From: a virus
Virus record (IMG/VR): IMGVR_UViG_3300045988_077901
Location: 1-32,345 of that record
Reading direction: 5' to 3' (one strand)
Length of the DNA stretch: 32,345 bases
The notes under the pieces are model-generated. The model saw only the letters and a list, made by a program, of their open reading frames with translations. It was not told the DNA's origin and did no database searches. Shown in pieces: positions 2,283-24,955 of the stretch (within the stretch, counting starts at the first letter, position 1; each line of letters opens with the position of its first letter). A program made the position numbers and the translations under genes.

Positions 2283-2606
2283 CTAATCAACGACAAGATA
2301 CGGTTTCTTTTTCGCCCGTATCTCTTCCATGTACTTTTTTGCGGTGCCGTTGCCGCCAAGAACCAAATAGGCTTCAAACTCGCGTTCCAGTTCGTCATAG
2401 CGCGAAATCGTCATGTGCTTGCCGCGCACAATGTAATCTTCGTAAGCGTCGAAAATGTCACGTCGCGCCGTGCATTTGTCAATCTCAATTCGCGCCTTGT
2501 CCAGCTTTGTTAGGTGTTTAAGCTGCGCCACAAGGAACCCAAGAACGCCGGCAACAGCCATTCCGACAATGGTTGTCAAAGCTTCGTTCGCCATCAAGTG
2601 AGCCAT
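2283..2606 (-). CDS. Small N-terminally membrane-anchored protein, possible holin-associated factor
   Basis: MAHLMANEALTTIVGMAVAGVLGFLVAQL TM then charged helical tail; ATG 2606 overlaps the upstream TAA (TAATG); sits directly upstream of the holin. Confidence 0.4.
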   Translation of the reverse strand: MAHLMANEALTTIVGMAVAGVLGFLVAQLKHLTKLDKARIEIDKCTARRDIFDAYEDYIVRGKHMTISRYDELEREFEAYLVLGGNGTAKKYMEEIRAKKKPYLVVD

Positions 2607-3046
2607 TACGCCGCCACCTCTTGCCAAACGCTCGCGGTGTCGGCAGAACCGGGCTTCCACACGTTGTTGTCAACAAGCGAAACCCACTTTTTGCCATCGT
2701 GCATGACAACGGCACCGGCTGCGTATCCGTTCGTTGAATCGGGCTGCACCCATTCCGGCACCTCTTCAGCGCCCGGGCTGTCGGCGGCTGCAAGGTTTCG
2801 CGCCCAAAGGCTGTGCGCCGCCTCTGGTGTCCAGTCAGGTTGCGACGTGTGCGCAAGCAAGCACACGTAAAGCACGCCGCCATAAAGCACGCGTTCGCCC
2901 TCGGTGTAGTAGTGGGCTGCTCCCGTCCATTCGGCGTAAAGCGCGGGCGCGATTTCCGCCAAGTCATCTGAAAGCCCCGGCGCTTGCGTCTGGTAGATCG
3001 CAATAATTCCGCGCAACGCGGCTTCCTCTTCTGCTGTAAATGCCAT
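2606..3046 (-). CDS. Protein with two CBM5/12-like aromatic carbohydrate-binding repeats
   Basis: YTEGERVLYGGVLYVCLLAHTSQPDWTPEAAHSLW and YAAGAVVMHDGKKWVSLVDNNVWKPG..SVW resemble the CBM5/12 pattern; AGGGAG RBS before ATG 3046. Confidence 0.45.
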   Translation of the reverse strand: MAFTAEEEAALRGIIAIYQTQAPGLSDDLAEIAPALYAEWTGAAHYYTEGERVLYGGVLYVCLLAHTSQPDWTPEAAHSLWARNLAAADSPGAEEVPEWVQPDSTNGYAAGAVVMHDGKKWVSLVDNNVWKPGSADTASVWQEVAA

Positions 3047-3067
3047 GTTTGCTCCCTAACAATAGGA

Positions 3068-3087
3068 AAGCCCGCAAAAGCGGGCTT
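3068..3087 (-). terminator. Hairpin after the RT gene (AAGCCCGC-TTTT-GCGGGCTT on the minus strand)
   Basis: 8-bp GC stem and 4-nt loop, followed on the minus strand by TCCTATTGTT; lies between the RT stop (3116) and the next start (3046). Confidence 0.5.
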
Positions 3088-3115
3088 GTGGCCTGTAATC
3101 AGTTGTGTGTATGGT

Positions 3116-4312
3116 TCATCCGAAAAGCTGCGAAAACAGCGCGTCCATAGCCCTAACGGTTCTCCTTGCGTCAAGCTTCAGCATCGAACCGCGCCAAGAT
3201 TGATAGCTTTGCAACGCCTGTTCCCTCGTCATTTCGCCGCGCTCCACGAATGCGGCAAGCTTCTTCAGCTTGCGGCGCTGGCGCGTTACGGCGGAACGGC
3301 AAGGCCGCACAATAACTTTTCCTGTCTCTCCATAGTTGAACCTCTTCTTTAGATAGGTGAACCCGCGCGAAAGCTTAACGATGCGGGTTTTCTTGTCGTT
3401 AATGACTATGCCCAACTTTTCGCATTCCGCCCGAATGTCCGATAGCACGCCGTGAAGGTCTGCTTTGTCAAGGGCAATGCAATAAAGGTCATCCATGTAA
3501 CGCCCGCTGTGAAGAACGCACGGCGTGCGCAACAAAAGGTGGTCTATAGGGCTTGGCAACGCTACTGCTAATATCTGGTTCGGCTCGCTGCCAAGCCCAA
3601 GGCCACGGGTGCCGTGGGAATCAATTTGCGCATACACAAGTTCTTTGATTCGGTCATCGATGATTGACCTGTCAACAAGGCGCTTGCAAGCGTCATGGTC
3701 AATGTTGCCGAAGTAGCTTGAAAAGTCCACCAGCAGCACGTAACCTTCGCTGCCGTGCTTCTGGTAGTGCTTTGCAAGCTGCTGCTTGAGCCTGTCAACC
3801 GCGTAAGATGTGCCGCGCCCCTTAATGTTTGCCGTGCAACCGGCGGTAAGGGTCGGCCAGATCGCGGGCGCAAGCGCATATCGGTTCAATGCCTTGTGTA
3901 TAACGCGCTCCGAATAGTGTACGGACGTTATGTGCCGAAGCTTCCCGCGCTCGCGAATATCGAACTCAACGAAACCGCGCCTTATGTCCTTTCCCGAAAG
4001 CAAATCTTCACGGGCTTTGCAGACGTTGGGCAAGCAACGCGCCAAATAGCGTTGAACTGCCGATTTCCAACCCACGCCATGGGCGCAAGCCTGTGCGCAT
4101 CTGTAAAGGTTGTCAACGTCTGCAACCTGTTCAATGGTGCATCGTTCAAGGCGCTTTTCTCGGTTCGCCGCGCGTTTCGCATCGCGGCGGGCACGTCGTG
4201 CAGCCCGCCGCTCTTCGGATTTCACGGGCACCCCGCACGGCTTGCAATCGGCATTCCGTAGCCGCTTAGGCACCAACAATGAAACGCAAGCAAATGCCGA
4301 AACCTGCGCCAT
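3116..4312 (-). CDS. DGR reverse transcriptase
   Basis: RT motifs LLVDFSSYFGNIDH, GLGLGSEPNQILAVALPSPIDH, GRYMDDLYCIA, NDKKTRIV; immediately downstream of TR and avd. Confidence 0.9.
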   Translation of the reverse strand: MAQVSAFACVSLLVPKRLRNADCKPCGVPVKSEERRAARRARRDAKRAANREKRLERCTIEQVADVDNLYRCAQACAHGVGWKSAVQRYLARCLPNVCKAREDLLSGKDIRRGFVEFDIRERGKLRHITSVHYSERVIHKALNRYALAPAIWPTLTAGCTANIKGRGTSYAVDRLKQQLAKHYQKHGSEGYVLLVDFSSYFGNIDHDACKRLVDRSIIDDRIKELVYAQIDSHGTRGLGLGSEPNQILAVALPSPIDHLLLRTPCVLHSGRYMDDLYCIALDKADLHGVLSDIRAECEKLGIVINDKKTRIVKLSRGFTYLKKRFNYGETGKVIVRPCRSAVTRQRRKLKKLAAFVERGEMTREQALQSYQSWRGSMLKLDARRTVRAMDALFSQLFG

Positions 4313-4430
4313 GCAAGCAGCGGTCTGCGGTACCCACGGGGTGCATATTTACGGCCATATGGCCGAACGTCGCACCTTCCTTCCTCTTCTGCACGGATTG
4401 CGGACGCATCCGCAATGGCTGGCATTTTCA

Positions 4431-4560
4431 AGGAATCACGGGCGCGGGCGCACCCACTCATTAGTGGCCGAATTGTTGTTGCAGTTGCCGTTGCTGTTGA
4501 CATTGCACACGTTGGACGCGGAACCGCCCATGACGGAACGCAACCACCAATTGACGCGCT
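4431..4560 (-). repeat. DGR template repeat (TR)
   Basis: 130 bp aligning base for base with 5071..5200 (offset 640); 116/130 identical; rich in AAY codons when read in the target frame. Confidence 0.9.
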
Positions 4561-4585
4561 AAACAAGATGCGACGTATGGTTATT

Positions 4586-4993
4586 CTACCCTTGCCCAAT
4601 CAATTTCACACCCTTTCTTGCGCCCTTGATTAGCTTTATCGCCGTTTCAACATCTTCTGCCATCCGCTCGCACCTGCTCACCTTCACAATGCCAAGTTCG
4701 ATAAGGCATTGCAGGTCTTGCATGATCTGCTCGCAGTCCGCAACGGCAAGCGTCATGTAATGCCGCCGCTGGCAAACGTTGTGTTCGGTGTTGGGGTAGA
4801 ACGCGTTTGCGGTCACAAGGTTGTGAACGATGCTTCGCGCTGTTTCCGCCATCGGGACGGCAAACACGAATCGGTATGACTTCGGCAACGCCGAAGAAGT
4901 AACAAGCGCCGTGATCTCTTTTCTGATTCTAACGGCGGTTGTGAAATACTCGTAATTGCTCAAATCGCGATAGCGGGCTAGAACTGTACTCAA
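4586..4993 (-). CDS. avd: Accessory variability determinant (Avd-like, four-helix-bundle type)
   Basis: 135-aa helical basic protein between target and TR, the canonical Avd position; TTG start with GAAAGG RBS. Confidence 0.7.
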   Translation of the reverse strand: MSTVLARYRDLSNYEYFTTAVRIRKEITALVTSSALPKSYRFVFAVPMAETARSIVHNLVTANAFYPNTEHNVCQRRHYMTLAVADCEQIMQDLQCLIELGIVKVSRCERMAEDVETAIKLIKGARKGVKLIGQG

Positions 4994-5014
4994 AGCAAGC
5001 CTTTCTTGTATCTA

Positions 5015-5035
5015 GCGCCCGCGCAAGGCGGGCGC
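5015..5035 (-). promoter_or_regulatory. GC-rich hairpin downstream of VR (candidate DGR target-recognition hairpin/cruciform)
   Basis: GCGCCCGC-gcaag-GCGGGCGC, 8-bp all-GC stem; 26 nt past the target stop codon, 36 nt past the VR end. Confidence 0.5.
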
Positions 5036-5060
5036 GGTTAAAGCGCACGGCATCGGCTTA

Positions 5061-5969
5061 TCAGTCTATTAGGAAGCACGGGCGCGGGCGCACCCAGTCA
5101 TTAGCGGCCGAATGGTTGCTGCAGTGGCCGTAGCTGCGGACAATGCACACGTGGGACGCGGAACCGCCCACGACGGAACGCAACCACCAAAAGACGCGCT
5201 CGCCCATCAAGCGGCTTGCCGCGCTGTCGAATATGGGGAAGTGGCAATCCATACCAACAGAATAACCCTTGCTGCCCCAAACAGCGCACCCGTAAACTTC
5301 CATTTCGGACAAAGACCAGACCTTGCCTAGGTCTGCCCATCCCCAGCCGCTAGCTTCAGTAAGCCCACCTGAAGAACCGTAGCGCTGTTCTGCCAACGAA
5401 CGGTGGTTCATAAGAACGTTGCGCAATGCCGCTGGCAAAGCCGGCAAATAATCGCTTATCTCCCAGCCGTGAAGCTTGCTGATTAGGTAGGGTTCTTTCG
5501 TGGTCGCGTTGCCGTTGTTGGTCGCTGTGTCGTTCCACTTGATATAGCTACCGTTTGAAGCCTTAGACCCGCCGACAAGGACGGGTGCCGATGGGACGAA
5601 CGCGATATGGTGCCCCATTGGCGAATCTGAACACTGGTAATAGGGATCAATTGCGCCGATCATGTAACGCACGGTCTGCGCCGGAACGTTCGTGCCGGCT
5701 GTGATTGGAACGTCCATGTAATCGCCGATGCGCAAGCCGGTGAAGTCTCCATCCTGCGCCCGCGATTTCAACCAGGCGTAAATATCGCCGCCAGCAGCGG
5801 CAATCTCCGAAGCGAAAGTGGTTGCAAGCGAACGCCCCTTGAATTGCGCAATGCCCTTTTGGCGGTCGAACTCTTCCTGAACGGTTACGGCGCTGGCAGA
5901 ATCACGCGCCGTTGTGTCTGCGTTCATGTATGTAGTGCCATTTACGTTGAAGCCCTTTAAGTCTGACAT
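5061..5969 (-). CDS. DGR target protein: tail-module receptor-binding candidate with C-type-lectin-like variable C-terminus
   Basis: C-terminus ..VWSLSEMEVYG..FPIF..RVFWWLRSVVGGSASHVCIVRSYGHCSNHSAANDWVRPRPCFLID holds the VR; AGGGGG RBS before ATG 5969 (the track start 5987 is less likely). Confidence 0.85.
   Translation of the reverse strand: MSDLKGFNVNGTTYMNADTTARDSASAVTVQEEFDRQKGIAQFKGRSLATTFASEIAAAGGDIYAWLKSRAQDGDFTGLRIGDYMDVPITAGTNVPAQTVRYMIGAIDPYYQCSDSPMGHHIAFVPSAPVLVGGSKASNGSYIKWNDTATNNGNATTKEPYLISKLHGWEISDYLPALPAALRNVLMNHRSLAEQRYGSSGGLTEASGWGWADLGKVWSLSEMEVYGCAVWGSKGYSVGMDCHFPIFDSAASRLMGERVFWWLRSVVGGSASHVCIVRSYGHCSNHSAANDWVRPRPCFLID
5071..5200 (-). repeat. DGR variable repeat (VR)
   Basis: Differs from TR at 14 positions, 13 of which are A in the TR coding strand; ends 8 nt before the target stop codon. 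Confidence 0.9.
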
Positions 5970-5979
5970 TTTCAGCCCC

Positions 5980-7071
5980 CTAAACAAGTGTGATTATGTT
6001 GTCTGCGAAGGTCGCGCCTGGAATGGAAAGCACGCCGTTTTCTACGGTTGCGCCACGGCTTGCCGGAACGTAGCAAATGCCGTCAATGATTATGTAATCG
6101 TCCGTGGCATCGCAAAGCGCACGCGCAAGCGTCGCATTGTCCCTTTTCAATTGGTCAATATCGGCGCTGCTGGCACCGCCGCCTGAACCGCCGCCGCCAG
6201 AACCAATGACGTTCAAGGCACGCTTCGTTGCGTCCCTCGCATCTTCGGCGGCGCTGTGCGCGTCAGCCGCCGCAATGTCGGCGTTCGCCTTTGCCGTGTT
6301 GGCCGCGCTTGCGGCATCGTTCGCCGCCGTTGCCGCGCTATTGGCGCTCTCAATCGCGGTTTCTACGCGCTCCGCCGCCGCGTTCGCCGCCGTTGCCGCG
6401 CTATTGGCGCTGGCCGCTGCGCTGTTCGCCGAAGATGCGGCGCTTGTTGCGCTGCTTGCAGCGCTGTTGGCAGAAGATGCGGCGCTTGTGGCAGACTGTG
6501 CCGCCGCATTCGCTGCGCTCGCGGCGCTGTTGGCCGCCGTTGTGGCCGCTTCGGCGTTCGTCACGGCTGTTTCGACGCGTGCCACCCCCGCATTCGCTGC
6601 ACTTGCGGCGCTGTTTGCGCTTGCCGCTGCGCTGTTGGCCGAACTTACGGCGGCGTTTCCGCGCTTGATTAAGTTGTCTATTGCGTCATCCCAGCTTTGC
6701 GCCGGTTGCTGTCCGGCTGTGGCGCATTTCAGAATCTCGATTGCGAAGCGCTCCGTTGAGTAGCGCACGCCGTTTTTCTCGAACGCGAAATAGGCTTCGT
6801 CCGTGTAGCCCGGAATGCTGCAAAGCTTGCTTTCGTCAACGGTGACGGTTGCGGCGTTGCCTGAAATGGTGGCCGCTGCGCGGTAGTAGTTCGCCTTGTT
6901 TGGCAACAGCACTTCAAGGTATCCCGTGAAGTCAGTTAGCGCCGCTTCCGCGCCGCCGTCGTAGATAAGCGCCTTGATGGTGGTTCCGTGCTTGTCGCCC
7001 TGACCGACGCGGACAAGGCCAGCGCCCAAGCCGTCCTTGCTAAGGTCTAGTTCAAGCGTGTGCGTGTTCAT
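5980..7071 (-). CDS. Tail fibre / baseplate upper protein (BppU-like N-terminus, Ala/Ser heptad stalk, Gly linker, C-terminal head)
   Basis: N-terminus MNTHTLELDLSKD..VRVGQGDKHGTTIKALIYDGG (BppU_N-like); ~140 aa of SAASSAN-type heptads; GSGGGGSGGG linker. Confidence 0.65.
   Translation of the reverse strand: MNTHTLELDLSKDGLGAGLVRVGQGDKHGTTIKALIYDGGAEAALTDFTGYLEVLLPNKANYYRAAATISGNAATVTVDESKLCSIPGYTDEAYFAFEKNGVRYSTERFAIEILKCATAGQQPAQSWDDAIDNLIKRGNAAVSSANSAAASANSAASAANAGVARVETAVTNAEAATTAANSAASAANAAAQSATSAASSANSAASSATSAASSANSAAASANSAATAANAAAERVETAIESANSAATAANDAASAANTAKANADIAAADAHSAAEDARDATKRALNVIGSGGGGSGGGASSADIDQLKRDNATLARALCDATDDYIIIDGICYVPASRGATVENGVLSIPGATFADNIITLV
6230..6660. repeat. 21-nt periodic GC-rich coding repeats (heptad stalk), including a perfect 31-bp direct repeat at 6318..6348 and 6381..6411
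   Basis: cgttcgccgccgttgccgcgctattggcgct occurs twice 63 bp apart; the surrounding sequence is variations of gccgc(n)ttggc units. Confidence 0.7.
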
Positions 7072-7469
7072 CGGCTCTCACCCGCCTTGGTGATCTCGCG
7101 CAGGGCGGCAAGCTTCGCGCTGAACGTCTCTACCGGGTCGCGCACCTGCGCCGGTGGGTCATCGTCTGCCGCCGCGAGCGCCGCCGCTTCGGGAAGCATG
7201 AGCGTTTGCAGCGCGTCGAACACGTCAACCACTGCTTGCATTCGCTCGTCAACATAGACGGGCTGCACAAGCTGCAAAGAACCTTCGGTGCCCTTTTGCG
7301 GCTTGACTTCCGAAATATCCGCAATGCGCCTGTTGCCGTGGGCATCGACGGCCACGAACACCACGCCTTGCGATGCAGCCGCATTGAGCAATGCGGGGTC
7401 AAACTCTGTCACTTGCGCTTCGGTGTTGCTCAACGGGTCGTGAGCCATGTAGATAACTGTTTCGCCCAT
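7068..7469 (-). CDS. Hypothetical tail-module protein
   Basis: MGETVIYMAHDPL.. with AAGGGGGA RBS just after the Tal stop; the track N-terminal extension overlaps the Tal gene. Confidence 0.5.
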   Translation of the reverse strand: MGETVIYMAHDPLSNTEAQVTEFDPALLNAAASQGVVFVAVDAHGNRRIADISEVKPQKGTEGSLQLVQPVYVDERMQAVVDVFDALQTLMLPEAAALAAADDDPPAQVRDPVETFSAKLAALREITKAGESR

Positions 7470-7479
7470 ATCGTCCCCC

Positions 7480-9420
7480 TTATCCTGTTCCAACCGTGCC
7501 GTATGTGGTGCATAGCCCGTCAATATGCGAAATCTTGAAAGTTCCGTAATGCCAGCCAACGCAACCGTTGCCGTTGTCGTGCAGTTCGGAAATGATGGGC
7601 TGTGAAATGGTGCCTGTCTGGCATATAGTCGCAACCGTGCTTATGTCGCTGCTCGCCGCCACCGATATTTGCGGGCTTGAAATCCTCGTGCCGTGCTGTG
7701 CTTGAAGCTGCAAGCCTTGGTACAGTTCGCCGGTCTGCACGTTTCGGAAGTGAGCCGAGAAGTCAATAACGCCGATCTGCACGCCGTTTTCGCTTCCCCG
7801 AATCTCCCCGGAAATCAGTTGCAGCAGGTTAGACGCAAGGCCGCATGAGAACTGGCCGTTTGCGGTGATGTTGTTTGCTTTCATGTAATTTGTGGTCAAC
7901 GTCCCGTTGGTCAAATTCCACGTGTTGCGCCCCCTGTCATCGGTCAGCAGCCCCGCGCGTATGCGGTCGGCTCGCATCGTTCCGGCGTTGATGCAATCGG
8001 CGGTCACGCTCGCGCCCGTTATGAACGTCTTCCAGTTCCATTGCCCGCTGCTCGTAAGGCTCGAAGCAAGGCGGATGCCGCGCCCGGAAATGTTCACGCA
8101 CCACATACCCGACACGCTTTTGAGCGGCAAGCCGGTTTCGGGGTTCAAGGGCACGTTGCTGTACAAGCTGCCAAGTTCAAAGGTTTCAACCTTGTAGGTT
8201 CCAACTGAATTGAACTGATCGTTAAGCGCGTCTTGAAGCTGCACCAGCCAGCTAACCGACGTGCCCGCCACCGCGTCATAGGTCGCCGCCGCGCGGCTGC
8301 TGTTCTTTAGGGTCTGGCTCACGCTCTGCCACATATCGGCCATGCTGTTAATGAGGTTGCCGAAAGTAACGGTAGCGTCGCCGCCCAGCAAGTCGCGTTC
8401 GATCTGCGACACGCGCCCGGTAAGCCTTATGCCCTCTTCGGTAAAGCCCTTGTCGATTATCGCCACGCGGTCACCAACCGCCGCGCCTTCCCAGCTTCGC
8501 CCGAACGCGTACAGGTCAAGCACGCTCGCTTCATAGCTAACCTTCGGTTCGCTGACCTCTGCAAGGTACGCTTTCGTTTCCTTTAGAAGCTGCGCGGCAT
8601 CCTCGCACTGCTCGTTCACGTAGCTTGTGCAAGCTGGCAGAGCGGTGCCGCTGGCGTTCGGATGCCCCCAAATCTTCGTTGCGGCGGCATCCTCGACGTA
8701 GGCTTTGCCGCCGTTGATTGATTCAAAGGTCAGCCGTCTGCCGTAAGCCCCCGAATCCGTCTCAACGCCCTTGCCGTAGCCGTAGACGCGCGTTTTCGGG
8801 TTGTCAGCCGCCACCGTGCGCGTGATGGTCTTAATGTCCTTCGTCCACGTGAAGCGCTTAGGGCTTGACTGGTTGCCGCGCAGCTTGCGCACGCCGACTT
8901 GGCGCGAAACCACCGAAGAACCATTGGTTGTAATGGTGGTTTCCAACTCGCCGCCCCACGCTTCCAAAATCTCGGCTATGGATTCGCGGGCGCTCTGGTG
9001 GTAGAGAACGACGCTTGCGCTTGCGGTCACGTCGCACGCGCCCACCGCCCAGCGCGTGCCGGTAAGCACGCGGGCAAGCGCCGTTGCAACCTGCCCCGAC
9101 GGCCTTACATCGTCCGTCCAATCGTCCCAAAGTTCGGCGATTGAGTTAACGCCCGTGAACTCGGTTTGCAAGGTTCCGTCTTCGCCGTGGGTTCGGCTCG
9201 CATCGTCAACAATGTGTTCATGGGTCTTGCCCTGCGCGTCAACCCAAACGATATAGTCACCCTTGTTCACGTCATCGGAACACGTCACCTTGATTTCGTC
9301 GGTGCCGTCCAGCGCTTCGGTGTGCGTCGCCGCCGTAACGTCCAGCCGCCCAAGGTTTACGCCCCAGCGCGAAAAGCGCGTGAAGCCAACTTTTCTGATT
9401 AAAGCCATCTTTCCCGCCAT
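7480..9420 (-). CDS. Tail-associated / tail tip protein (phage minor structural protein, Prophage_tail-like)
   Basis: 646 aa directly after Dit; N-terminal region typical of siphovirus Tal proteins; start may be ATG 9408. Confidence 0.75.
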   Translation of the reverse strand: MAGKMALIRKVGFTRFSRWGVNLGRLDVTAATHTEALDGTDEIKVTCSDDVNKGDYIVWVDAQGKTHEHIVDDASRTHGEDGTLQTEFTGVNSIAELWDDWTDDVRPSGQVATALARVLTGTRWAVGACDVTASASVVLYHQSARESIAEILEAWGGELETTITTNGSSVVSRQVGVRKLRGNQSSPKRFTWTKDIKTITRTVAADNPKTRVYGYGKGVETDSGAYGRRLTFESINGGKAYVEDAAATKIWGHPNASGTALPACTSYVNEQCEDAAQLLKETKAYLAEVSEPKVSYEASVLDLYAFGRSWEGAAVGDRVAIIDKGFTEEGIRLTGRVSQIERDLLGGDATVTFGNLINSMADMWQSVSQTLKNSSRAAATYDAVAGTSVSWLVQLQDALNDQFNSVGTYKVETFELGSLYSNVPLNPETGLPLKSVSGMWCVNISGRGIRLASSLTSSGQWNWKTFITGASVTADCINAGTMRADRIRAGLLTDDRGRNTWNLTNGTLTTNYMKANNITANGQFSCGLASNLLQLISGEIRGSENGVQIGVIDFSAHFRNVQTGELYQGLQLQAQHGTRISSPQISVAASSDISTVATICQTGTISQPIISELHDNGNGCVGWHYGTFKISHIDGLCTTYGTVGTG

Positions 9421-10124
9421 TCCAGCACCGCGCTGCCGCCGCTTAGTTGCAGGGTCGTGCGGCCATTGATCGTGAAGAAATCCGAATCAAGCGTGACGGC
9501 GGCGGCTTGGCTGTTGACGGTCGCCCGCTCTAGCGCCATGTCAACGCGCACGGTGCTTGTGCTTGTGACGCTCGACGCAAGCTTTACTTGCTCGCCCGTG
9601 TCAACGTTCCTGATATACCAAGCCGCGCTTGAAGACGGCTTAGCGGTGATTGCCAGATGCGCGGGGCGGTTGCCGCCCGCGTTCACCGTGAACGTTCCCG
9701 CCTTGACTTCAACGCGGCGCTTGTTGCCGTAATAGAACGGATCGCCAACATGGAACGTCACCGTTGTGCTTGGGCAAGCGTCCGTGATCTCGCCAAGGTC
9801 TGTTGACCCGCTCACGATTGCCAGAAGGTAGCGCGTGGGGTCATCGGGAAGCACCAGCGGCGCGGGTTCGTCGGTGCATAGCAGTTCCGCCAGTGCGTGG
9901 CGAACCGCCGCCGCGTCCCGCCTGTCATCGCTTCTTAGCCAAATGTCAACCGGCAGATCATAGCCCCCGAAGTAGGCCGATTTGAACAACTCGCCGTGGC
10001 GGCCTGAAACGCTCTCGAAGTTCGCGTTTACAGGTGCCATGATAGGCCGGTTGACCTTGCAGCTTACAAGGGCGCTTAGGTCGTGCCCGTTGAATATAAC
10101 GCGGTCGGTCTGCGCCCGCTTCAT
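9399..10124 (-). CDS. Distal tail protein (Dit, Sipho_tail-like)
   Basis: VIFNGHDLSALV..ESVSGRHGELF pattern; position between tape measure and Tal; ATG 10124 starts 1 nt after the TMP stop. Confidence 0.75.
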   Translation of the reverse strand: MKRAQTDRVIFNGHDLSALVSCKVNRPIMAPVNANFESVSGRHGELFKSAYFGGYDLPVDIWLRSDDRRDAAAVRHALAELLCTDEPAPLVLPDDPTRYLLAIVSGSTDLGEITDACPSTTVTFHVGDPFYYGNKRRVEVKAGTFTVNAGGNRPAHLAITAKPSSSAAWYIRNVDTGEQVKLASSVTSTSTVRVDMALERATVNSQAAAVTLDSDFFTINGRTTLQLSGGSAVLEWRERWL

Positions 10125-10125
10125 C

Positions 10126-12678
10126 TTACGTTGCAACGCTCACACCCCTTTGCTTTAGCTTGCTTGCAATCCCAAGGCCGATTTGCTGGCCTGTCTGGTA
10201 CGCGTCCGCATTGCCCGCAACCGTCGCGTTGACCTCGACGCTGACGGCGATTTGCTGCGCGGGCTGTCCGCCGTTGAACGCGTTGTTAACCGCGCGTTCG
10301 ATGAAGTCCCATAGCTGCTTTTCAGGCGCCACGTACTCGCCGCCCGCTTCGCCAACGCCGATGATCGAAGCTTTGTCGAAGTAGCCGCCGCGTGCGTACC
10401 AGTCAACGGACACGCTAGGCAGCTTGATTGGGCCAACGTCATTCCAAGAAACGTTGAAGTGCGGCATCTTGATTTTCGGCAACTCAATCTTGATGCCGCC
10501 GAAGATGCTCATAATCTTGCCCGGTATGTCCTTTATGAAGTTCCACGCGTTTTCAATGGGGTTCTTCATGAAGTCTCGAACGCTGTTGAACACGCCGTTT
10601 ACCTTCTCGCCCAAGCCCGGAAAGCCCAGCTTGTTGCCTATGGCATCGGCGACGCGCACGGCGTTTTGCTGCGCGTTGTCCATCTTCTGGCTGATGTTGT
10701 CCTTGATCGCGTTAAAGGCGTTGGCGGCTTCGGCCTTGGCGGTTGACCAGTCGCCGGAAAGGGCGGCTTGCAGGGCGCTGCCCGCGCTGCTGCCCACCTG
10801 CTCTGCCGTGTTCATGTCGTTTTGCACGGTGGAAGCAATTCCGCCGAAGTACGTTTGCGTGGCGGTCTGTAGGGTGTTCCACTTGTCGGAAACCCAATCA
10901 GCCGCGCCCTGTGCCTTTTCGGAAACGGTGCTTTTGATGTTCTCCCAAGCGTTGCTTGCGTCCTGCTTGAAGCCTTCCCATTTGCTCGCAACATCGCTTT
11001 TGAACTGCTCAACGCCGCTTGTAACGTCGTTCCAAACGCCGCCCCAGAACTCACCGGCACCGCTAAGGAAGTCACAAACGCCCTGCCACTTCTCCGAAAT
11101 CCAGCCGGTGAAGTCAGCCCACATCTGCTTGCCCGTCTCGGTCTGCGTGAAGAACCACGTAAGACCGGCCACCGCCGCGCTTACCGCTGCGATGCCAAGG
11201 CCGATAGGGTTAGCGGTGATAAGGCCGGTTAGGCTCTTCCATCCGCCGCCAAGACCGCCGAACTTCCCGCCCAGCCCGTCGGCCTTTCCGCCAAGGTCAA
11301 CGAAGCCGCCCGCAATGCTCTTGATCGCGCCGCCGATGGGCGCGGCGCTCTGCATGAACTTGCCAACGGCGGTAGTAACCCCGCCGAACGCCAGCACGCC
11401 TAGCCCAAGGTTCTTGACTAGTTCTTGCTGCTCCGGCGACAGCGATTTGAACCAATCCGAAGCGGCTTGAAGCGCCGGTGTCAGCTTGCCTAGAATCTCG
11501 CTGCCAATTTCGGTTACCATCTGCTTTACCGGCAAGGCCGCTTCGCCCATTTCGCGCATGGATGTTTCAAGTTCGTTTTGCGCGTCGCGGCTTGCCAACA
11601 AGTCTTTGTTGGTTTCCTGAAACGCCTTGCCAGCATCCCCGTAAACGCCCGCCAGCGCGTCCGTTACAAGGGTCGCGCGTTCCTGCTCGGTCTTGCACGC
11701 CGCCAGTGCTTCGTTAAAAGCGTCTTCCTTGGTCTGACCCTCTGCAATGGCCTTGTTGAAAGCTGCTTGTGCGGCAGAATTGCCGGAAAGGGCGTTGCTC
11801 CACTGCTCGGCGCTAGCCGTTGACCAGTTGAGCGCGTCGGCGAAACTGCCGGTTACCGCGCCGGTGTGCGCGGTTTCCTGCGCCGTTTCTGCCAAGTTCT
11901 CCAACGGCAGCGCGTCGCCGAATGTGGCATAGGCACCGGCTGCAATGTCAGTCCACTTCTTCAATTCCTCTTCGTCTTGCGTGAGCCTGATTAGGTTCTG
12001 GCTCGCTTCGGTGGCGGTGTCGCCGTCGCCCAAGATGCGGTAGAAGTTCGCATAGGTGGTCTGCGCTTGCTCAACGGTGCTTCCGGCGCTGGTGAAAGCG
12101 GTTTCAAGCTGGTTGTTCTTGGCTATGGCCTCTTCTTGGCTCTCCGCAAGGGCGGTCAGGCCGGTTGCCGCCGCCGTGATGCCGCCGGAAATAGCAAGCC
12201 CGCCGCGCTCAACGCCCTTGCCCGCCTTTTCCAGCTTGTCGGCGTTATCTTCGATGGTCTGGCCGAACTTGTATAGCTTGGTTTTCGACGCTTCGGCTTC
12301 GCGCGACGTTTCGGCAAGTTCCTTGCCGTACGATTCAAGCTGGTTTTCGCATTGCAAGATAGCGCGTTTAAGGCTGTCGTATTGCCGTTCCTCTTCGGCG
12401 GTCAGCCTAGCGCCGCTCTGCTGTTTCGCTTCAAGCTGCGCAAGCGCCTGTTTGTACGCGTCCAACTTCTGTTGCGTCTCGCCATAGGCGCTGTTTAGCG
12501 CCTTGACCTTCTGTTGCAGCAAGTCGGTATTGCCCGGATTGAACTTCAAAGACTTGTCAATTTCCTTCAAGTCCGCTTGGGTCTTCTTGGATTCGCTAGA
12601 AACCTTCTTCAAAGCCCCTTGAAGTTCGGTAGTGTCGCCGCCGAACTTGATAACAAGCCCTTTGTAGCTTACCGCCAT
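10126..12678 (-). CDS. Tape measure protein
   Basis: 850 aa, coiled-coil N-terminus, Gly-rich hydrophobic centre (GGKFGGLGGGWKSLTGLITANPIGLGIAAV), canonical position. Confidence 0.9.
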   Translation of the reverse strand: MAVSYKGLVIKFGGDTTELQGALKKVSSESKKTQADLKEIDKSLKFNPGNTDLLQQKVKALNSAYGETQQKLDAYKQALAQLEAKQQSGARLTAEEERQYDSLKRAILQCENQLESYGKELAETSREAEASKTKLYKFGQTIEDNADKLEKAGKGVERGGLAISGGITAAATGLTALAESQEEAIAKNNQLETAFTSAGSTVEQAQTTYANFYRILGDGDTATEASQNLIRLTQDEEELKKWTDIAAGAYATFGDALPLENLAETAQETAHTGAVTGSFADALNWSTASAEQWSNALSGNSAAQAAFNKAIAEGQTKEDAFNEALAACKTEQERATLVTDALAGVYGDAGKAFQETNKDLLASRDAQNELETSMREMGEAALPVKQMVTEIGSEILGKLTPALQAASDWFKSLSPEQQELVKNLGLGVLAFGGVTTAVGKFMQSAAPIGGAIKSIAGGFVDLGGKADGLGGKFGGLGGGWKSLTGLITANPIGLGIAAVSAAVAGLTWFFTQTETGKQMWADFTGWISEKWQGVCDFLSGAGEFWGGVWNDVTSGVEQFKSDVASKWEGFKQDASNAWENIKSTVSEKAQGAADWVSDKWNTLQTATQTYFGGIASTVQNDMNTAEQVGSSAGSALQAALSGDWSTAKAEAANAFNAIKDNISQKMDNAQQNAVRVADAIGNKLGFPGLGEKVNGVFNSVRDFMKNPIENAWNFIKDIPGKIMSIFGGIKIELPKIKMPHFNVSWNDVGPIKLPSVSVDWYARGGYFDKASIIGVGEAGGEYVAPEKQLWDFIERAVNNAFNGGQPAQQIAVSVEVNATVAGNADAYQTGQQIGLGIASKLKQRGVSVAT

Positions 12679-23417: not shown

Positions 23418-24617
23418 TCATTGCAACAACTCCTTCAACTCAACGTGCGCCGCTTCAGCCGCTTGCTCAAAGACGATTGCAGCGCGTTTCCCGCTTCCCG
23501 GCATTCGGTGCGCGTATGTCTTGACGGTGATTGCTTCGTCGGCGTGCCCTAAGCGATTGGAAACGGTCTTAACGTCTACGCCGTTGACCAGAAGCCATGT
23601 TGCGTGCGTGTGCCGCAATCCGTGGTAGGTAAGCCCTTTCGGCATACCCGCTTTTGCCGCAATGCCGGAAAACGCACGCGATATGGTGGACGGTCTGCAA
23701 TAGCTGCCGTCTATCGTGATTAGCGGTGCATCTGCTGGCAGATCGCCGCAAAACCTCTTTCGCAGTTCCAAGAAATCGGCGATAACCTGCAAATCAGATT
23801 CGGCAATCTCAATCGTTCGATTGCGACGGCCTTTTGTGACGTTGCGCCTGTATGGCCTTTTGCCCTTTTGCTCAATTACCGTGCCGGCAATGTGTATCGT
23901 CTTTGCTGCTTCCGAAATCTCGTTAGGCCACAACGCGCACACCTCGCCGCACCTCATGCCTGTTCTAAGCGCGAACCAAGCGGCAAACGCGTTCAAAACG
24001 CGCCTATACGTAACCTTGTTCAAAACCTCTGGTTTAAGAATCGCTTTTAGCTGCTCGTCCAGCTTTGCGAAATCCACGGTTGCAAGTGAAATTGCTTCGT
24101 GTGTCTCCAAGCGCGGCTTGTTAACTGCAATGAGCGGGTTAATCTGGCAAATGTTTTCTTCCACGAACCACGAATAGGCACCGCGCAAGAAATCGTGTAC
24201 GTTGCGCACGGTGTTTTGCGATAGTTCAAAGCCCTTTTTGCTCTTCGGTCGGCGCAAGGCAATTTCAAACTTCGTGAAGTTGTGCGTTTGAAGGTCGCAC
24301 GCGTTGACGGCTCCGAAGTACCTAACGGCATACTTCGTGAACAGCCGATAGCTTCTAACGGTGTTTGGCGAAAAGCCCGCCAGTTCGCAATACTCTGTGT
24401 AATCGTCCAGCAGATCGCCAAGCAACGCGCTAAGCACCAGCCCATTAGCCGACAGCTTGGAAGCCCACGCGTCGGCCATTTCCTGCGCTTGCTCTTCGTC
24501 TTGCGCCGTTGGAAACTCGCGGTAGGGCTGAATCGCCTTGCCTTCAGCCGTGCGCCCAAGATACGGGCGGGCAAACCACACTTCACGCTTAGTGTCCCAT
24601 TTCACCTTGCAGCGCAT
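23418..24617 (-). CDS. Tyrosine recombinase / phage integrase family
   Basis: ALRTGMRCGE, HGLRHTHATWLL, LGHADEAITVKTYAH catalytic signature; ATG 24617 follows the upstream stop with a GAGG RBS. Confidence 0.9.
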   Translation of the reverse strand: MRCKVKWDTKREVWFARPYLGRTAEGKAIQPYREFPTAQDEEQAQEMADAWASKLSANGLVLSALLGDLLDDYTEYCELAGFSPNTVRSYRLFTKYAVRYFGAVNACDLQTHNFTKFEIALRRPKSKKGFELSQNTVRNVHDFLRGAYSWFVEENICQINPLIAVNKPRLETHEAISLATVDFAKLDEQLKAILKPEVLNKVTYRRVLNAFAAWFALRTGMRCGEVCALWPNEISEAAKTIHIAGTVIEQKGKRPYRRNVTKGRRNRTIEIAESDLQVIADFLELRKRFCGDLPADAPLITIDGSYCRPSTISRAFSGIAAKAGMPKGLTYHGLRHTHATWLLVNGVDVKTVSNRLGHADEAITVKTYAHRMPGSGKRAAIVFEQAAEAAHVELKELLQ

Positions 24618-24619
24618 GG

Positions 24620-24955
24620 CTATTCGACCTCGGTTTGCTCTACGTTGCCTAACGGGCATTCGTTGCGCATCACGAAGCCAAGATGCTTGCTTGCTTCTGT
24701 TCTTTTAGGAAATTGGCAGCAATCTTCAAAACTGTTCCAATAGGCGCACTGGTCATCTACTGTTTCGGTGCCGCTGCATTGCTCTAACTCTTCCGGAAGA
24801 ATGCGCCAAAAAAACGGCACAATGCAATACCCGACAAGAAACACCCGACCGCACTTGAAGCACTCTACTTCATATTCAATGCCTGGTTCTTGCTCGCAGT
24901 ATTCGGAACCATCAAAAGCAGCGCCGCAATATGGGCACGTATATTCAGCATTCAT
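24620..24955 (-). CDS. Zinc-ribbon hypothetical protein
   Basis: CPYC..(26 aa)..CFKC; GGAGGG RBS. Confidence 0.5.
   Translation of the reverse strand: MNAEYTCPYCGAAFDGSEYCEQEPGIEYEVECFKCGRVFLVGYCIVPFFWRILPEELEQCSGTETVDDQCAYWNSFEDCCQFPKRTEASKHLGFVMRNECPLGNVEQTEVE

Follow-up and report, generated by a model that had tools for sequence, protein, structure and literature searches.

The viral DNA analysed here, hereafter the window, is a stretch of 32,345 nucleotides that carries, in its tail module, a cassette on the minus strand, in the order DUF6273 target gene with a C-terminal variable repeat (VR), accessory variability determinant gene (avd), template repeat (TR), structured spacer RNA and reverse transcriptase (RT) gene. 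The target gene (5061..5969) runs from an ATG at 5969-5967 to a TGA stop codon at 5063-5061 and encodes a 302-aa tail/receptor-binding protein. The avd gene (4586..4993) encodes 135 aa from a TTG start codon, which is ATG in some relatives, and the RT occupies a 398-aa ORF (3116..4312) with a YMDD motif at residue 272. A terminator-like hairpin with a T-rich tail, found by consensus scan after the RT stop codon (3068..3087, minus strand), likely marks where the cassette transcript ends. A further minus-strand ORF of 125 aa (4222-4599) that overlaps the TR had no family matches and was treated as spurious.

The target gene directly follows Dit, Tal and BppU-like tail genes. Its product matched Pfam DUF6273 above the gathering score (E=5.2e-9) and had 604 homologues, the close ones all being 302 aa in length. 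An AF2 model of the protein (pLDDT 85.8, pTM 0.84) gave 28 Foldseek matches at E<=1e-3, comprising phage DUF6273, receptor-binding and tail-fibre proteins. Mtd was not among the Foldseek matches, C-type lectins appeared only at non-significant E-values, and a sequence search against the PDB returned noise only. Earlier work described DUF6273 as a DGR target that resembles C-type lectins and carries the VR C-terminally; in the window, the VR falls in the last 45 codons of the gene and encodes residues 258-299 of 302. The analysis identifies this protein as the receptor-binding protein of a Coriobacteriia phage, with approximately 14 residues setting host specificity.

The avd product matched PHROG 3206, annotated as the Avd protein of DGRs (E=6.8e-7), and, below the gathering score, the Pfam family 23S_rRNA_IVP (E=6.6e-4). 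Sequence searches against the PDB gave noise only, and comparing a shallow Avd profile with BPP-1 Avd by hhalign gave no match (probability 0.1%). The AF2 model (pLDDT 79.7) is a four-helix bundle, for which Foldseek returned 2gsc (TM 0.78/0.91), 8ub7_B and 2rld, as well as BPP-1 Avd (4dwl_D; TM 0.67/0.83, the latter target-normalised; rmsd 2.2 A; prob 1.00). Judging by this modelled fold, the protein encoded at 4586-4993, between the VR and the TR, is Avd.

Two minus-strand hairpins lie downstream of the VR. The larger, GC-rich hairpin (5015..5035) comprises an 8-bp stem (GCGCCCGC/GCGGGCGC) and a 5-nt CTTGC loop, is located 35 nt downstream of the VR, past the target stop codon and ahead of the ribosome-binding site of avd, and is a candidate target-recognition hairpin or cruciform. 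By single-stranded DNA fold prediction, it formed in 7/7 distinct family sequences, with a GC-rich stem of 7-10 bp across clades, a wholly different stem sequence in the distant clade (GGGGACC/GGTCCCC), and loops of CTTGC (window), TTT, CTTGT, GCAA or GAAA. In a MAFFT alignment of the sequences following the VR, which misaligned the distant clade, RNAalifold found no compensatory pairs; folding each sequence separately placed the hairpin in both clades. Published DGR target hairpins have a 7-10 bp stem and a 4-nt GRNA loop and lie 4-34 bp from the VR, so that the window hairpin, with its 5-nt CTTGC loop and 35-nt distance, falls just outside these criteria. A possible reading, albeit not the one that we favour, is that this hairpin attenuates transcription, or acts on RNA stability, at the passage from the abundantly expressed tail gene to the DGR genes, rather than serving as a DNA cruciform for target recognition. 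The hairpin follows the target stop codon and immediately precedes the ribosome-binding site of avd, which would suit such a role; its loop is off the GRNA consensus and differs within the family, and only 34% of DGRs have an inverted GC-rich repeat after the VR. However, the hairpin has no T-run and was not flagged by the terminator scan, its GC-rich stem is kept in structure and not in sequence across clades, as published for DGR target hairpins, and the TR has no hairpin counterpart at the same distance downstream. We retain the 5015..5035 hairpin as a candidate target-recognition element. The smaller, proximal hairpin (5055..5066) has a 4-bp stem and a GAUA tetraloop and includes the target stop codon. 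It reads GGCT-GAYA-AGCC in three related loci (L001, L002 and L005) and CTGC-GTAA-GCAG in the distant clade, and has 3-nt loops (AAA/AGG/AAG) in L006, L007 and L009; in the window, where 5065 bears a private G>A change (G302D), the stem reads GACT and is weakened.

A repeat search showed the TR (4431..4560) and VR (5071..5200), both on the minus strand, to be a two-copy direct repeat of 130 nt, spaced 640 nt apart with 89% identity and with homology ending abruptly at both borders. Base-by-base comparison gave a gapless alignment with 14 mismatches (4436, 4457, 4465, 4474, 4479, 4486, 4492, 4497, 4498, 4503, 4513, 4531, 4551 and 4552), exactly reproducing the offset of 640 and the positions listed in an earlier sequence-only reading of this DNA. 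As that reading had also claimed, every difference except 4457 was a plus-strand T, that is, 13/14 mismatches were an A on the minus coding strand of the RT-side copy; the sole non-adenine mismatch of the pair, at 4457, was C versus G. Given the 26 adenines in the 130-nt TR, the hypergeometric probability of at least 13/14 mismatches falling on adenine was 5.0e-10.

Read in the target frame, where it is bounded by the stop codons TAG (4561-4559) and TGA (4438-4436), the TR contains ten AAY codons, of which eight are changed in the VR; a recount matched the codon changes listed previously, and the additional ATG>GTG, ACT>GCT, GAG>GAC and TGA>TGC changes were likewise found. Twenty of the 26 TR adenines sit in the ten AAY codons, and 25/26 occupy codon positions 1 or 2 (13 at position 1 and 12 at position 2), the one at position 3 being the fixed A of IMH*. 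Because 4436 is a fixed IMH*/IMH marker, we did not count it as mutagenesis, which leaves 12/25 adenines (48%) changed in the window. The corresponding VR positions span 5192 to 5105, and the changes comprise four each of A>C, A>G and A>T. The proposal that about half of the adenines had changed through at least one round of homing is reasonable, given that approximately 50% of TR adenines are substituted per cDNA in BPP-1, with 0-0.5% at other bases. A second VR was not found in the window in searches with the full TR (<=45 mismatches) or with 40-nt pieces of it (<=10 mismatches).

The 3' ends of the two repeats share a GC-rich string, GGGTGCGCCCGCGCCCGTG, which is identical in the TR (4437-4455) and VR (5077-5095) and includes a 13-nt IMH core, GCGCCCGCGCCCG (5079-5091 in the VR). 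IMH (5071..5095, minus strand) consists of this stretch followed by CTTCCT, with a fixed C at 5076; IMH* (4431..4455, minus strand) has the same stretch followed by ATTCCT, with a fixed A at 4436. The sequence-only reading had attributed two mismatches, TGA versus TGC at 4436 and GAG versus GAC at 4457, to differences between IMH* and IMH. The first attribution was right: 4436/5076 was A in the TR and C in the VR in all 17 TR/VR pairs, in all other pairs examined and in the sister contigs described below, and Cys298, whose codon contains 5076, was invariant among homologues. The second was unsupported, since GAG stands in TR and VR alike in the nearest relatives. Moreover, adenine mutagenesis in L009 extends 3' of the 4457-equivalent position, up to the GC stretch, and none of 15 close homologues (0/15) has Asp at the residue templated by 4457. 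By these comparisons, the change at 4457 is a private non-adenine substitution inside the mutagenised zone. Nor do the two positions lie within the GC-rich string, as had been thought; both flank GGGTGCGCCCGCGCCCGTG, 4436 by 1 nt on its 3' side and 4457 by 2 nt on its 5' side.

Related loci were gathered by protein-seeded locus searches and not by an exact-pattern scan; they include prophages in Adlercreutzia muris DSM 29508 (L027) and Olsenella sp. Marseille-P4559 (L026). A scan of IMG/VR with the TR/VR consensus, bearing N at adenines, gave 0 hits, because the relatives differ at a few non-adenine bases, and megablast of positions 3000-7100 against 50,697 GenBank phages gave no match. Amongst 16 more distant relatives, 228/230 TR/VR mismatches fell on adenine. 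Over all gapless pairs, the window included, 205/406 adenines were changed (50.5%) and only three non-adenine changes were seen, one of them being that of the window. TR adenines across the family were replaced by G (144), C (55) or T (50). The family rates match those of BPP-1 at both adenines and other bases.

Four sister metagenome contigs (L029, L030, L031 and L032), which share approximately 96% identity with the window over 4.1 kb, permitted a closer comparison. The TRs of L029, L030 and L032 were identical to the window TR over 130 nt, and that of L031 differed only at the last repeat base. Each contig nonetheless had its own VR, so that five phages, including that of the window, carry five VRs. 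Mismatches between TR and VR in the four sister contigs were again almost confined to adenine (54/55), and 22/24 variable columns among the five VRs were at TR adenines. The same pattern was evident in the protein: among homologues 91-95% identical, 14/14 codons with a templating adenine at position 1 or 2 were hypervariable, and mean entropy was 2.15 bits at these 14 adenine-templated codons, as compared with 0.10 at other VR codons and 0.06 outside the VR. The population evidence for DGR diversification is decisive. Substitutions on all four TR bases, or variation beyond adenine positions, were looked for and the outcome does not refute the proposed TR/VR relationship. The core claim of the sequence-only reading, namely adenine-specific homing from a DGR TR into AAY codons of the VR at the 3' end of the target gene, agrees with the neighbouring genes, the 16 relatives, the sister VRs and the protein hypervariability.

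The stretch that separates the TR from the RT gene corresponds to a structured RNA. By cmscan, positions 4208..4417 (minus strand) matched Rfam RF03077 (RT-2 RNA) over the full model (positions 1-222 of 222) at 87.8 bits (E=5.5e-19; gathering score 40). The match extends from 14 nt past the TR to approximately 105 nt inside the RT ORF, and a conserved block within it, GCUGCUUGCAUGG (4309-4321), holds the putative RT start codon. RF03077 was present at the same position in 12/12 related loci scanned, at 86-126 bits in the relatives, and no match to RF03022 (Phage_DGR RNA) was obtained at the gathering threshold in the window or in 12 relatives; BPP-1 has RF03022 in the equivalent place (104.7 bits). 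At the level of sequence, RT-2 appears to have no homology to this BPP-1 spacer. The RT-2 match has as its first helix a stem-loop of 8 bp with a UNCG-type tetraloop (AUUGCGGA-UGCG-UCCGCAAU; 4397..4416, minus strand). This element lies 14 nt downstream of the TR, was predicted in the alignment fold and has UACG and CACG as loop variants in relatives. Avd-binding stem-loops have been reported downstream of the TR in 207 DGRs and, by analogy, the 4397-4416 stem-loop is a candidate Avd-binding element.

Farther downstream, complementarity and folding single out the purine-rich segment GAGGAAGGAAGGUGCGACGU (4367..4386, minus strand) as both a candidate primer strand and the 3' arm of a long-range duplex. 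The segment shows complementarity in its 5' half to UUCCUU (4430-4435) at the 3' end of the TR, and its A/G-rich block is conserved yet unpaired in the RT-2 consensus. Its 3' half (4367-4378) pairs over 12 bp with ACGUCGCAUCUU (4565..4576, minus strand), which lies 4 nt upstream of the TR. Amongst relatives, 93.5% of cells in this duplex were paired versus 33-57% in slid controls, 5/12 pairs were changed on both sides, and 0/500 shuffles reached its covariation score. The duplex may be regarded as the analogue of the BPP-1 cPRT Stop duplex. As a Shine-Dalgarno sequence for the RT, the purine-rich block was discounted, the ATG being 63 nt farther downstream and the short reading frame after the block running for only 9 codons.

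The RT matched Pfam RVT_1 (E=1e-11) and PHROG 1423 (E=6e-66) and aligned by BLASTP with BPP-1 Brt at 26% identity over 337 aa (E=5e-21). Translation of the RT starts no farther downstream than residue 56, and the length predicted by gene callers in relatives is 309 aa. Catalytic and fidelity residues are kept in the window protein, R74, G182 and Q187 of Brt being conserved, with Leu in place of I181 and Asn in place of S186. The DGR RT signature is [I/L/V]GxxxSQ (IGxxxSQ); the window motif LGSEPNQ keeps the Leu, Gly and Gln of this signature without its Ser. The NQ motif was found in 27/27 RTs of the family to which the window RT belongs and, because this NQ-bearing family shows adenine-specific TR/VR differences, we treated LGxxxNQ as a clade variant and not as a ground for exclusion from DGRs.

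Whether the window carries a decayed or inactive DGR, from a lineage that diversified in the past and in a copy that no longer homes, deserves consideration. The non-adenine VR change at 4457/5097, which was found in no relative, and the private G302D change with its weakened proximal hairpin are in keeping with this, and time may have passed since the last homing event. Even so, we consider loss of activity unlikely: none of the three ORFs (RT, with its YMDD intact, Avd and target) is truncated, the window TR is identical to that of sister phages with independently diversified VRs, the spacer RNA matches RF03077 from end to end with its long-range duplex intact, and the rate of non-adenine change, approximately 0.2%, is within the range of active DGRs. 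The DGR is apparently complete and working, and we infer that the window copy is presently active.

Assignment of the RT to another class (group II intron, retron or defence RT), with the adenine bias arising by deamination or editing, is very improbable. No DGR-specific NCBIfam model fired, and the generic RT matches that did appear, to group II maturase, Drt2, Drt3a, Drt4 and retron RT, were weak and reflect the shared RT fold; their scores were far under the cut-offs (55 bits versus 300 for group II, and 20-26 versus 200-450 for Drt and retron models). The best PDB match was instead 8ub7_A, the RT of a DGR RNP (E=8e-16), with group II maturase at 2e-4, which makes Brt the closest relative in structure, with an E-value margin of 12 orders of magnitude. 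In addition, Rfam identified no group II intron or retron RNA in the window, only RT-2, and deamination predicts A>G changes alone, contrary to the substitution spectra of both the window and the family. Least credible of all, to the point of being practically negligible, is an ordinary segmental duplication of the 3' end of the tail gene to a site 640 nt downstream, followed by neutral divergence and with the RT unrelated: duplication is in principle a possible origin for a 130-nt direct repeat of 89% identity, but neutral divergence would touch all four bases and not one base of one copy, the same asymmetry recurs in the relatives, the non-coding copy is nearly invariant across phages whose coding copies all differ, and a Brt homologue and an Avd gene accompany the pair, the latter between the two copies.

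Taken together, the data indicate that 4431-4560 and 5071-5200 are almost certainly the TR and VR of a canonical BPP-1-type DGR on the minus strand of a temperate, siphovirus-type Coriobacteriia phage. By analogy with BPP-1, a transcript that runs from the 3' end of avd through the TR and the spacer would fold around an RT-Avd complex, with the 4565-4576/4367-4378 duplex and the 4397-4416 stem-loop helping to organise the RNA fold. The purine-rich spacer segment would then pair with the UUCCUU at the TR 3' end and prime cDNA synthesis in cis, and the RT would copy the TR faithfully save opposite adenines, about half of which would receive a random base. The priming nucleotide is predicted to fall within 4375-4386, and the first templated base at or adjacent to 4436-4437. 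The resulting cDNA would replace the VR, probably with assistance from the GC-rich hairpin downstream; a 3' junction within the GC-rich IMH would account for 5076 keeping its C. With codon positions 1 or 2 holding 25/26 TR adenines, of which 20 belong to AAY codons, each round could recode about 14 surface receptor-binding residues, and mutagenised AAY codons would create no stop codons. Such recoding may let the phage alter its host-receptor specificity.

DGRs are well known, tens of thousands having been catalogued in gut viromes, and the element itself is therefore unsurprising. For annotation, the reading fixes a function for approximately 3 kb of the window. The five sister phages, with the same TR (save one last-base difference) and five VRs, constitute a clean natural experiment on adenine-restricted diversification, and their comparison separates the fixed IMH*/IMH marker from mutagenic changes.

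The closest parallel is the BPP-1 DGR (mtd-avd-TR-brt), with which the window shares gene order and strand logic, i.e., a target with a 3' VR, avd, TR, spacer and RT. The two systems have repeats of similar length (130 nt in the window and 134 nt in BPP-1), a GC-rich IMH with a non-identical IMH*, substitution of approximately 50% of adenines, and RTs homologous over their full length in which R74, G182, Q187 and YMDD are kept. They also have in common the four-helix-bundle fold predicted for Avd, a hairpin downstream of the VR, and a duplex that joins sequences upstream and downstream of the TR. In contrast, the window target is a DUF6273 protein and not Mtd, its spacer is RF03077 rather than RF03022, its Avd has no recognisable sequence similarity to that of BPP-1, and its RT has Asn for Ser186, Leu for Ile181 and an arginine-rich N-terminal extension of approximately 50 aa. 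The hairpin loop is CTTGC in the window and GAAA in BPP-1, and the window phage is a siphovirus of a Gram-positive actinobacterium. IMH and IMH* differ in the window at a single fixed position in 6-7 nt of post-GC homology; in BPP-1, they differ at several positions over 21 nt.

DGRs with DUF6273 targets are also found in gut phages, namely the Faecalibacterium prophages Lelie, CP11, Roos and Pioen and the 'tentaclin' phages nd4 and nd12. These resemble the window in having a DUF6273 target whose VR ends that domain C-terminally, in their tail/receptor-binding context and in their gut hosts, and the fold of the window target matches many phage DUF6273 proteins. They differ in that the window host belongs to the Coriobacteriia and not to Faecalibacterium, and in that the window has a single 302-aa target consisting of DUF6273 only, without Ig-like or Fn3 domains.

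As for RF03077, an Rfam motif associated with RTs that had no assigned function, the window RNA conforms to RT-2 in its full-length match and in lying directly upstream of, and overlapping, the start of the RT gene. The paper that described the RT motifs only speculated that those other than RT-10 act in DGRs. The present data go beyond that report in placing RT-2 directly after the TR in the window and at 12/12 scanned loci; this position, and the adenine-specific TR/VR pairs at 16 related loci, indicate that RT-2 is functionally the DGR spacer, and place it as the DGR spacer RNA of the whole clade. We consider it reasonably probable that RT-2 is the cis-priming spacer of a distinct class of phage DGRs, characterized by LGxxxNQ RTs, DUF6273 targets and Gram-positive gut hosts, which rebuilds a BPP-1-type RNP. 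Its architecture would comprise an Avd-binding tetraloop hairpin after the TR, a purine-rich primer strand and a covarying 'stop' duplex across the TR. If this is true, RT-2 provides a second, independent RNA family for testing the cis-priming and termination model. The covariation supports a BPP-1-like duplex between upstream and downstream sequences and, together with the placement of RT-2, favours the published view that distant DGRs have kept a common cis-priming RNP architecture.

The intervals 4431-4560 and 5071-5200 are, with very little doubt, the template repeat (TR) and the variable repeat (VR), respectively, of a diversity-generating retroelement (DGR). A repeat search of the window returned them as a 130-nt direct repeat in two copies, with a spacing of 640 and 89% identity, the homology ending abruptly at both borders. 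A search for a second VR across the window found none. By base-by-base comparison, the two copies differ at 14 positions, 13 of which carry a plus-strand T (i.e., a minus-strand A) in the 4431-4560 copy, the remaining mismatch being C vs G at 4457. Adenine accounts for 26 of the 130 nt of the TR copy; were mismatches placed at random, 13 or more of the 14 would land on adenine with a hypergeometric probability of P = 5.0e-10. Read in the frame of the target, the minus-strand ORF that holds 5071-5200, TR adenines occupy codon position 1 in 13/26 cases and position 2 in 12/26, and eight of the ten AAY codons are changed in VR. All 14 mismatch positions, the AAY codon counts and the individual codon changes reported in the sequence-only reading were reproduced exactly. 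The mismatches at 4436 and 4457, which that reading had placed inside the GC-rich string, were instead found to flank it (4437-4455 in TR, 5077-5095 in VR).

A protein-seeded scan of IMG/VR yielded 21 loci with RTs 44-92% identical to that of the window. In 16 of these, TR and VR are arranged as in the window, with 228/230 mismatches on TR adenines, and related loci L014-L017 combine a single common TR with four different VRs. Among 604 target homologues, 15 clusters were 91-95% identical to the window protein, and the differences among them concentrate at 14 codons with a TR adenine at position 1 or 2. Mean entropy was 2.15 bits at these 14 adenine-templated VR codons, 0.10 bits at the 27 VR codons lacking a TR adenine, and 0.06 bits outside VR. 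Contigs for four target variants (L029-L032), from separate samples and matching the window at ~96% identity over 4.1 kb, were also retrieved. The TRs of L029, L030 and L032 equal that of the window at 130/130 positions, and that of L031 differs solely at the last repeat base. Each of the four has a different VR, with 11/11, 16/16, 13/14 and 14/14 TR/VR mismatches on adenine; across these VRs and that of the window, 22 of the 24 variable columns lie at TR adenines. This comparison of sister contigs, the nearest equivalent of a read pile-up, supports the DGR reading. It is unlikely, in our estimation, that the DGR copy in the window is now inactive. In gapless pairs including the window, 205/406 adenines were changed (50.5%), with three non-adenine differences. 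These rates match those of Bordetella phage BPP-1, the prototype DGR (mtd-avd-TR-brt), in which ~50% of adenines and 0-0.5% of other bases are substituted.

In some relatives, VR is longer than TR, i.e., by an 18-nt tandem duplication in L002 (3105-3250), a 33-nt insert in L003 (890-1065) and an insert of about 25 nt in L023 (3075-3250). In L003 and L023, the added sequence resembles further copies of part of TR that were mutagenised independently, a pattern suggestive of template slippage or jumping in the course of homing.

Two of the mismatches had been proposed as differences between IMH, the GC-rich 3' segment of VR, and its TR counterpart IMH*. The proposal held for the 3'-most one (TGA vs TGC; A at 4436, C at 5076): all TR/VR pairs examined show A>C here, including those of a clade with only 44% RT identity, and Cys298, encoded at the 5076 codon, is invariant among target homologues. 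Judged from these alignments, 4436/5076 is a fixed difference that tells IMH* from IMH, rather than an outcome of random mutagenesis; setting it aside as such gives a mutagenic count of 12/25 adenines (48%). The GAG/GAC difference at 4457 was rejected as an IMH*/IMH marker. At the equivalent codon, the closest relatives have GAG in TR and VR alike, residue 291 is Asp in 0/15 close homologues (Glu or Gly instead), and adenine mutagenesis in relatives occurs 3' of this site, right up to the GC stretch (locus L009). By the same comparison, 4457/5097, where the VR base yields Asp291, is a substitution private to the VR of the window. With 4436 and 4457 so corrected, the initial interpretation of the repeats as a DGR pair was upheld, and the locus displays DGR architecture, adenine- and VR-restricted variation, an invariant TR and a fixed IMH marker.

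The genes around TR/VR all lie on the minus strand. In transcription order, tape measure (10126-12678) comes first, followed by Dit (9399-10136), Tal/prophage tail endopeptidase (7480-9420), an unassigned ORF (7068-7634), a BppU_N-like minor tail protein (5980-7071) and the target (5061-5969), a DUF6273 protein of 302 aa in which the 5071-5200 repeat falls within the last 45 codons. Next are a 135-aa Avd (accessory variability determinant) candidate (4586-4993; PHROG 'Avd protein of DGR', 6.8e-7), the non-coding TR with in-frame stops at both bounds, a 118-nt spacer, and a 398-aa RT ORF with a YMDD motif (3116-4312). Downstream of the RT lie a terminator-like hairpin (3068-3087, minus strand), then a 146-aa CBM5/12 carbohydrate-binding module protein (2606-3046), whose position is kept in L029, L030 and L032, and an endolysin gene. 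The ORF at 5980-7071 contains imperfect 150-nt direct repeats (6293-6442 and 6503-6652, 73% identity) and several shorter GC-rich repeat families. These encode an Ala-rich repetitive segment of this minor tail protein, which immediately precedes the DGR target and probably forms a fibrous stalk.

Farther along the window are terminase, portal, protease, major capsid, major tail and integrase genes, the last of the tyrosine-integrase family (23418-24659, minus strand; PHROG 1, E=3e-48); the window yielded no tRNA gene. The structural genes and integrase indicate a temperate siphovirus-type phage. Adlercreutzia, Olsenella and Eggerthellaceae genomes carry RT relatives with 83-85% identity, which points to Coriobacteriia as hosts. 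The prophage relative L023 (CAVCDZ010000059.1) comes from a MAG that carries the label Oscillibacter sp., all other hosts being Coriobacteriia; this label may reflect misbinning or a broader range of hosts.

Homology or fold was established for RT, Avd and target. The RT shares 26% identity with the BPP-1 RT (Brt) over 337 residues (E=5e-21), and its best solved relative is the DGR ribonucleoprotein RT 8ub7_A (E=8e-16; group II maturase, 2e-4). It keeps R74, G182, Q187 and YMDD of Brt, with I181 replaced by Leu and S186 by Asn, and thus reads LGSEPNQ (residues about 235-245) where Brt has IGSLTSQ. All 27 RTs of the RT-2-associated family of the window share the NQ variant, and all show adenine-specific mutagenesis. 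Where the RT begins is ambiguous. The ATG at 4312 falls in the conserved RT-2 block GCUGCUUGCAUGG and lacks an obvious Shine-Dalgarno; in L029, L030 and L032 (4425-5354), gene callers predict a product of 309 aa, yet the alignment with Brt extends from residue 56 of the 398-aa ORF, preceded by an arginine-rich stretch (residues 30-55). For the Avd candidate, no sequence-profile similarity to BPP-1 Avd was detected and the Pfam 23S_rRNA_IVP match was sub-threshold. Its AlphaFold model is a four-helix bundle (pLDDT 79.7) that superposes on BPP-1 Avd 4dwl_D (TM 0.67/0.83, rmsd 2.2 A, probability 1.00), on 8ub7_B, and on 2gsc (TM 0.78/0.91) and 2rld, both of the 23S-rRNA-IVP family. Among solved structures, the target model had a single significant match, 9qa6 (E=2.6e-5), the DUF6273 N-terminal domain of Thomasclavelia ramosa IgA peptidase, so that the scaffold diversified by the DGR is shared with a bacterial IgA protease.

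A full-length Rfam match to RF03077 (RT-2 RNA), a motif with no assigned function, was obtained at 4208-4417 on the minus strand (87.8 bits, E=5.5e-19), beginning 14 nt past TR and including the RT start codon, and RF03077 was found at the equivalent place in 12/12 related loci scanned. In BPP-1 this place is taken by RF03022; in the paper first describing the RT-n motifs, only RT-10 was tied to the BPP-1 DGR, with a role of the others in other DGRs raised as speculation. Analogues of RNA elements were sought under guidance of the BPP-1 RNP model. By this analogy, the minus-strand stem-loop AUUGCGGA-UGCG-UCCGCAAU (4397-4416) is a candidate Avd-binding hairpin, and a purine-rich minus-strand segment (4375-4386) with complementarity to UUCCUU at the 3' end of TR (4430-4435) is a candidate primer strand. 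A 12-bp long-range minus-strand duplex joins 4565-4576, just upstream of TR, to 4367-4378 in the spacer, and resembles the 'cPRT Stop' duplex of BPP-1. Its cells are paired in 93.5% of cases vs 33-57% in slid controls, with both sides changed in 5/12 pairs and compensatory changes across the family. Its covariation score was reached by 0/500 shuffles, for a structure derived from the same sequences and with the register for the distant clade chosen by the analyst. We consider it reasonably probable that RT-2 is a second structural class of DGR cis-priming RNA, converging on the BPP-1 RNP architecture; if true, this would be of modest interest.

Downstream of VR, the clades share a GC-rich hairpin with an 8-bp stem (5015-5035) whose structure, but not sequence, is conserved; it has no T-run. 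Against the published DGR target hairpin (a stem, a 4-nt GRNA loop and a distance of 4-34 bp), its stem fits, its loop is not a 4-nt GRNA, and its distance of 35 nt is just beyond the range. A smaller 4-bp hairpin at 5055-5066 contains the target stop codon and has a GAYA/GUAA tetraloop in some clades and a 3-nt loop in others. By analogy, either or neither may serve in target recognition. A G>A change at 5065, private to this genome, weakens the smaller hairpin and converts residue 302 to Asp from the Gly of the 15 closest homologues.

Taken together, the cassette is a DGR of the BPP-1 type whose target is a DUF6273 protein, and gut phages with this combination have been described before. If it operates as in BPP-1, a transcript spanning the avd 3' end, TR and spacer would assemble with RT-Avd, the spacer would cis-prime cDNA synthesis close to the TR 3' end, adenines would be miscopied about half the time, and the cDNA would replace VR, with its 3' junction within the GC stretch. 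The outcome would be new receptor-binding variants whose AAY codons yield no stops, because TR adenines lie at codon positions 1 and 2. The cassette differs from BPP-1 in its spacer RNA family (RF03077 vs RF03022), the NQ motif of its RT, the sequence divergence of its Avd, a minimal IMH/IMH* difference limited to one position, and the loop of the hairpin downstream of VR.
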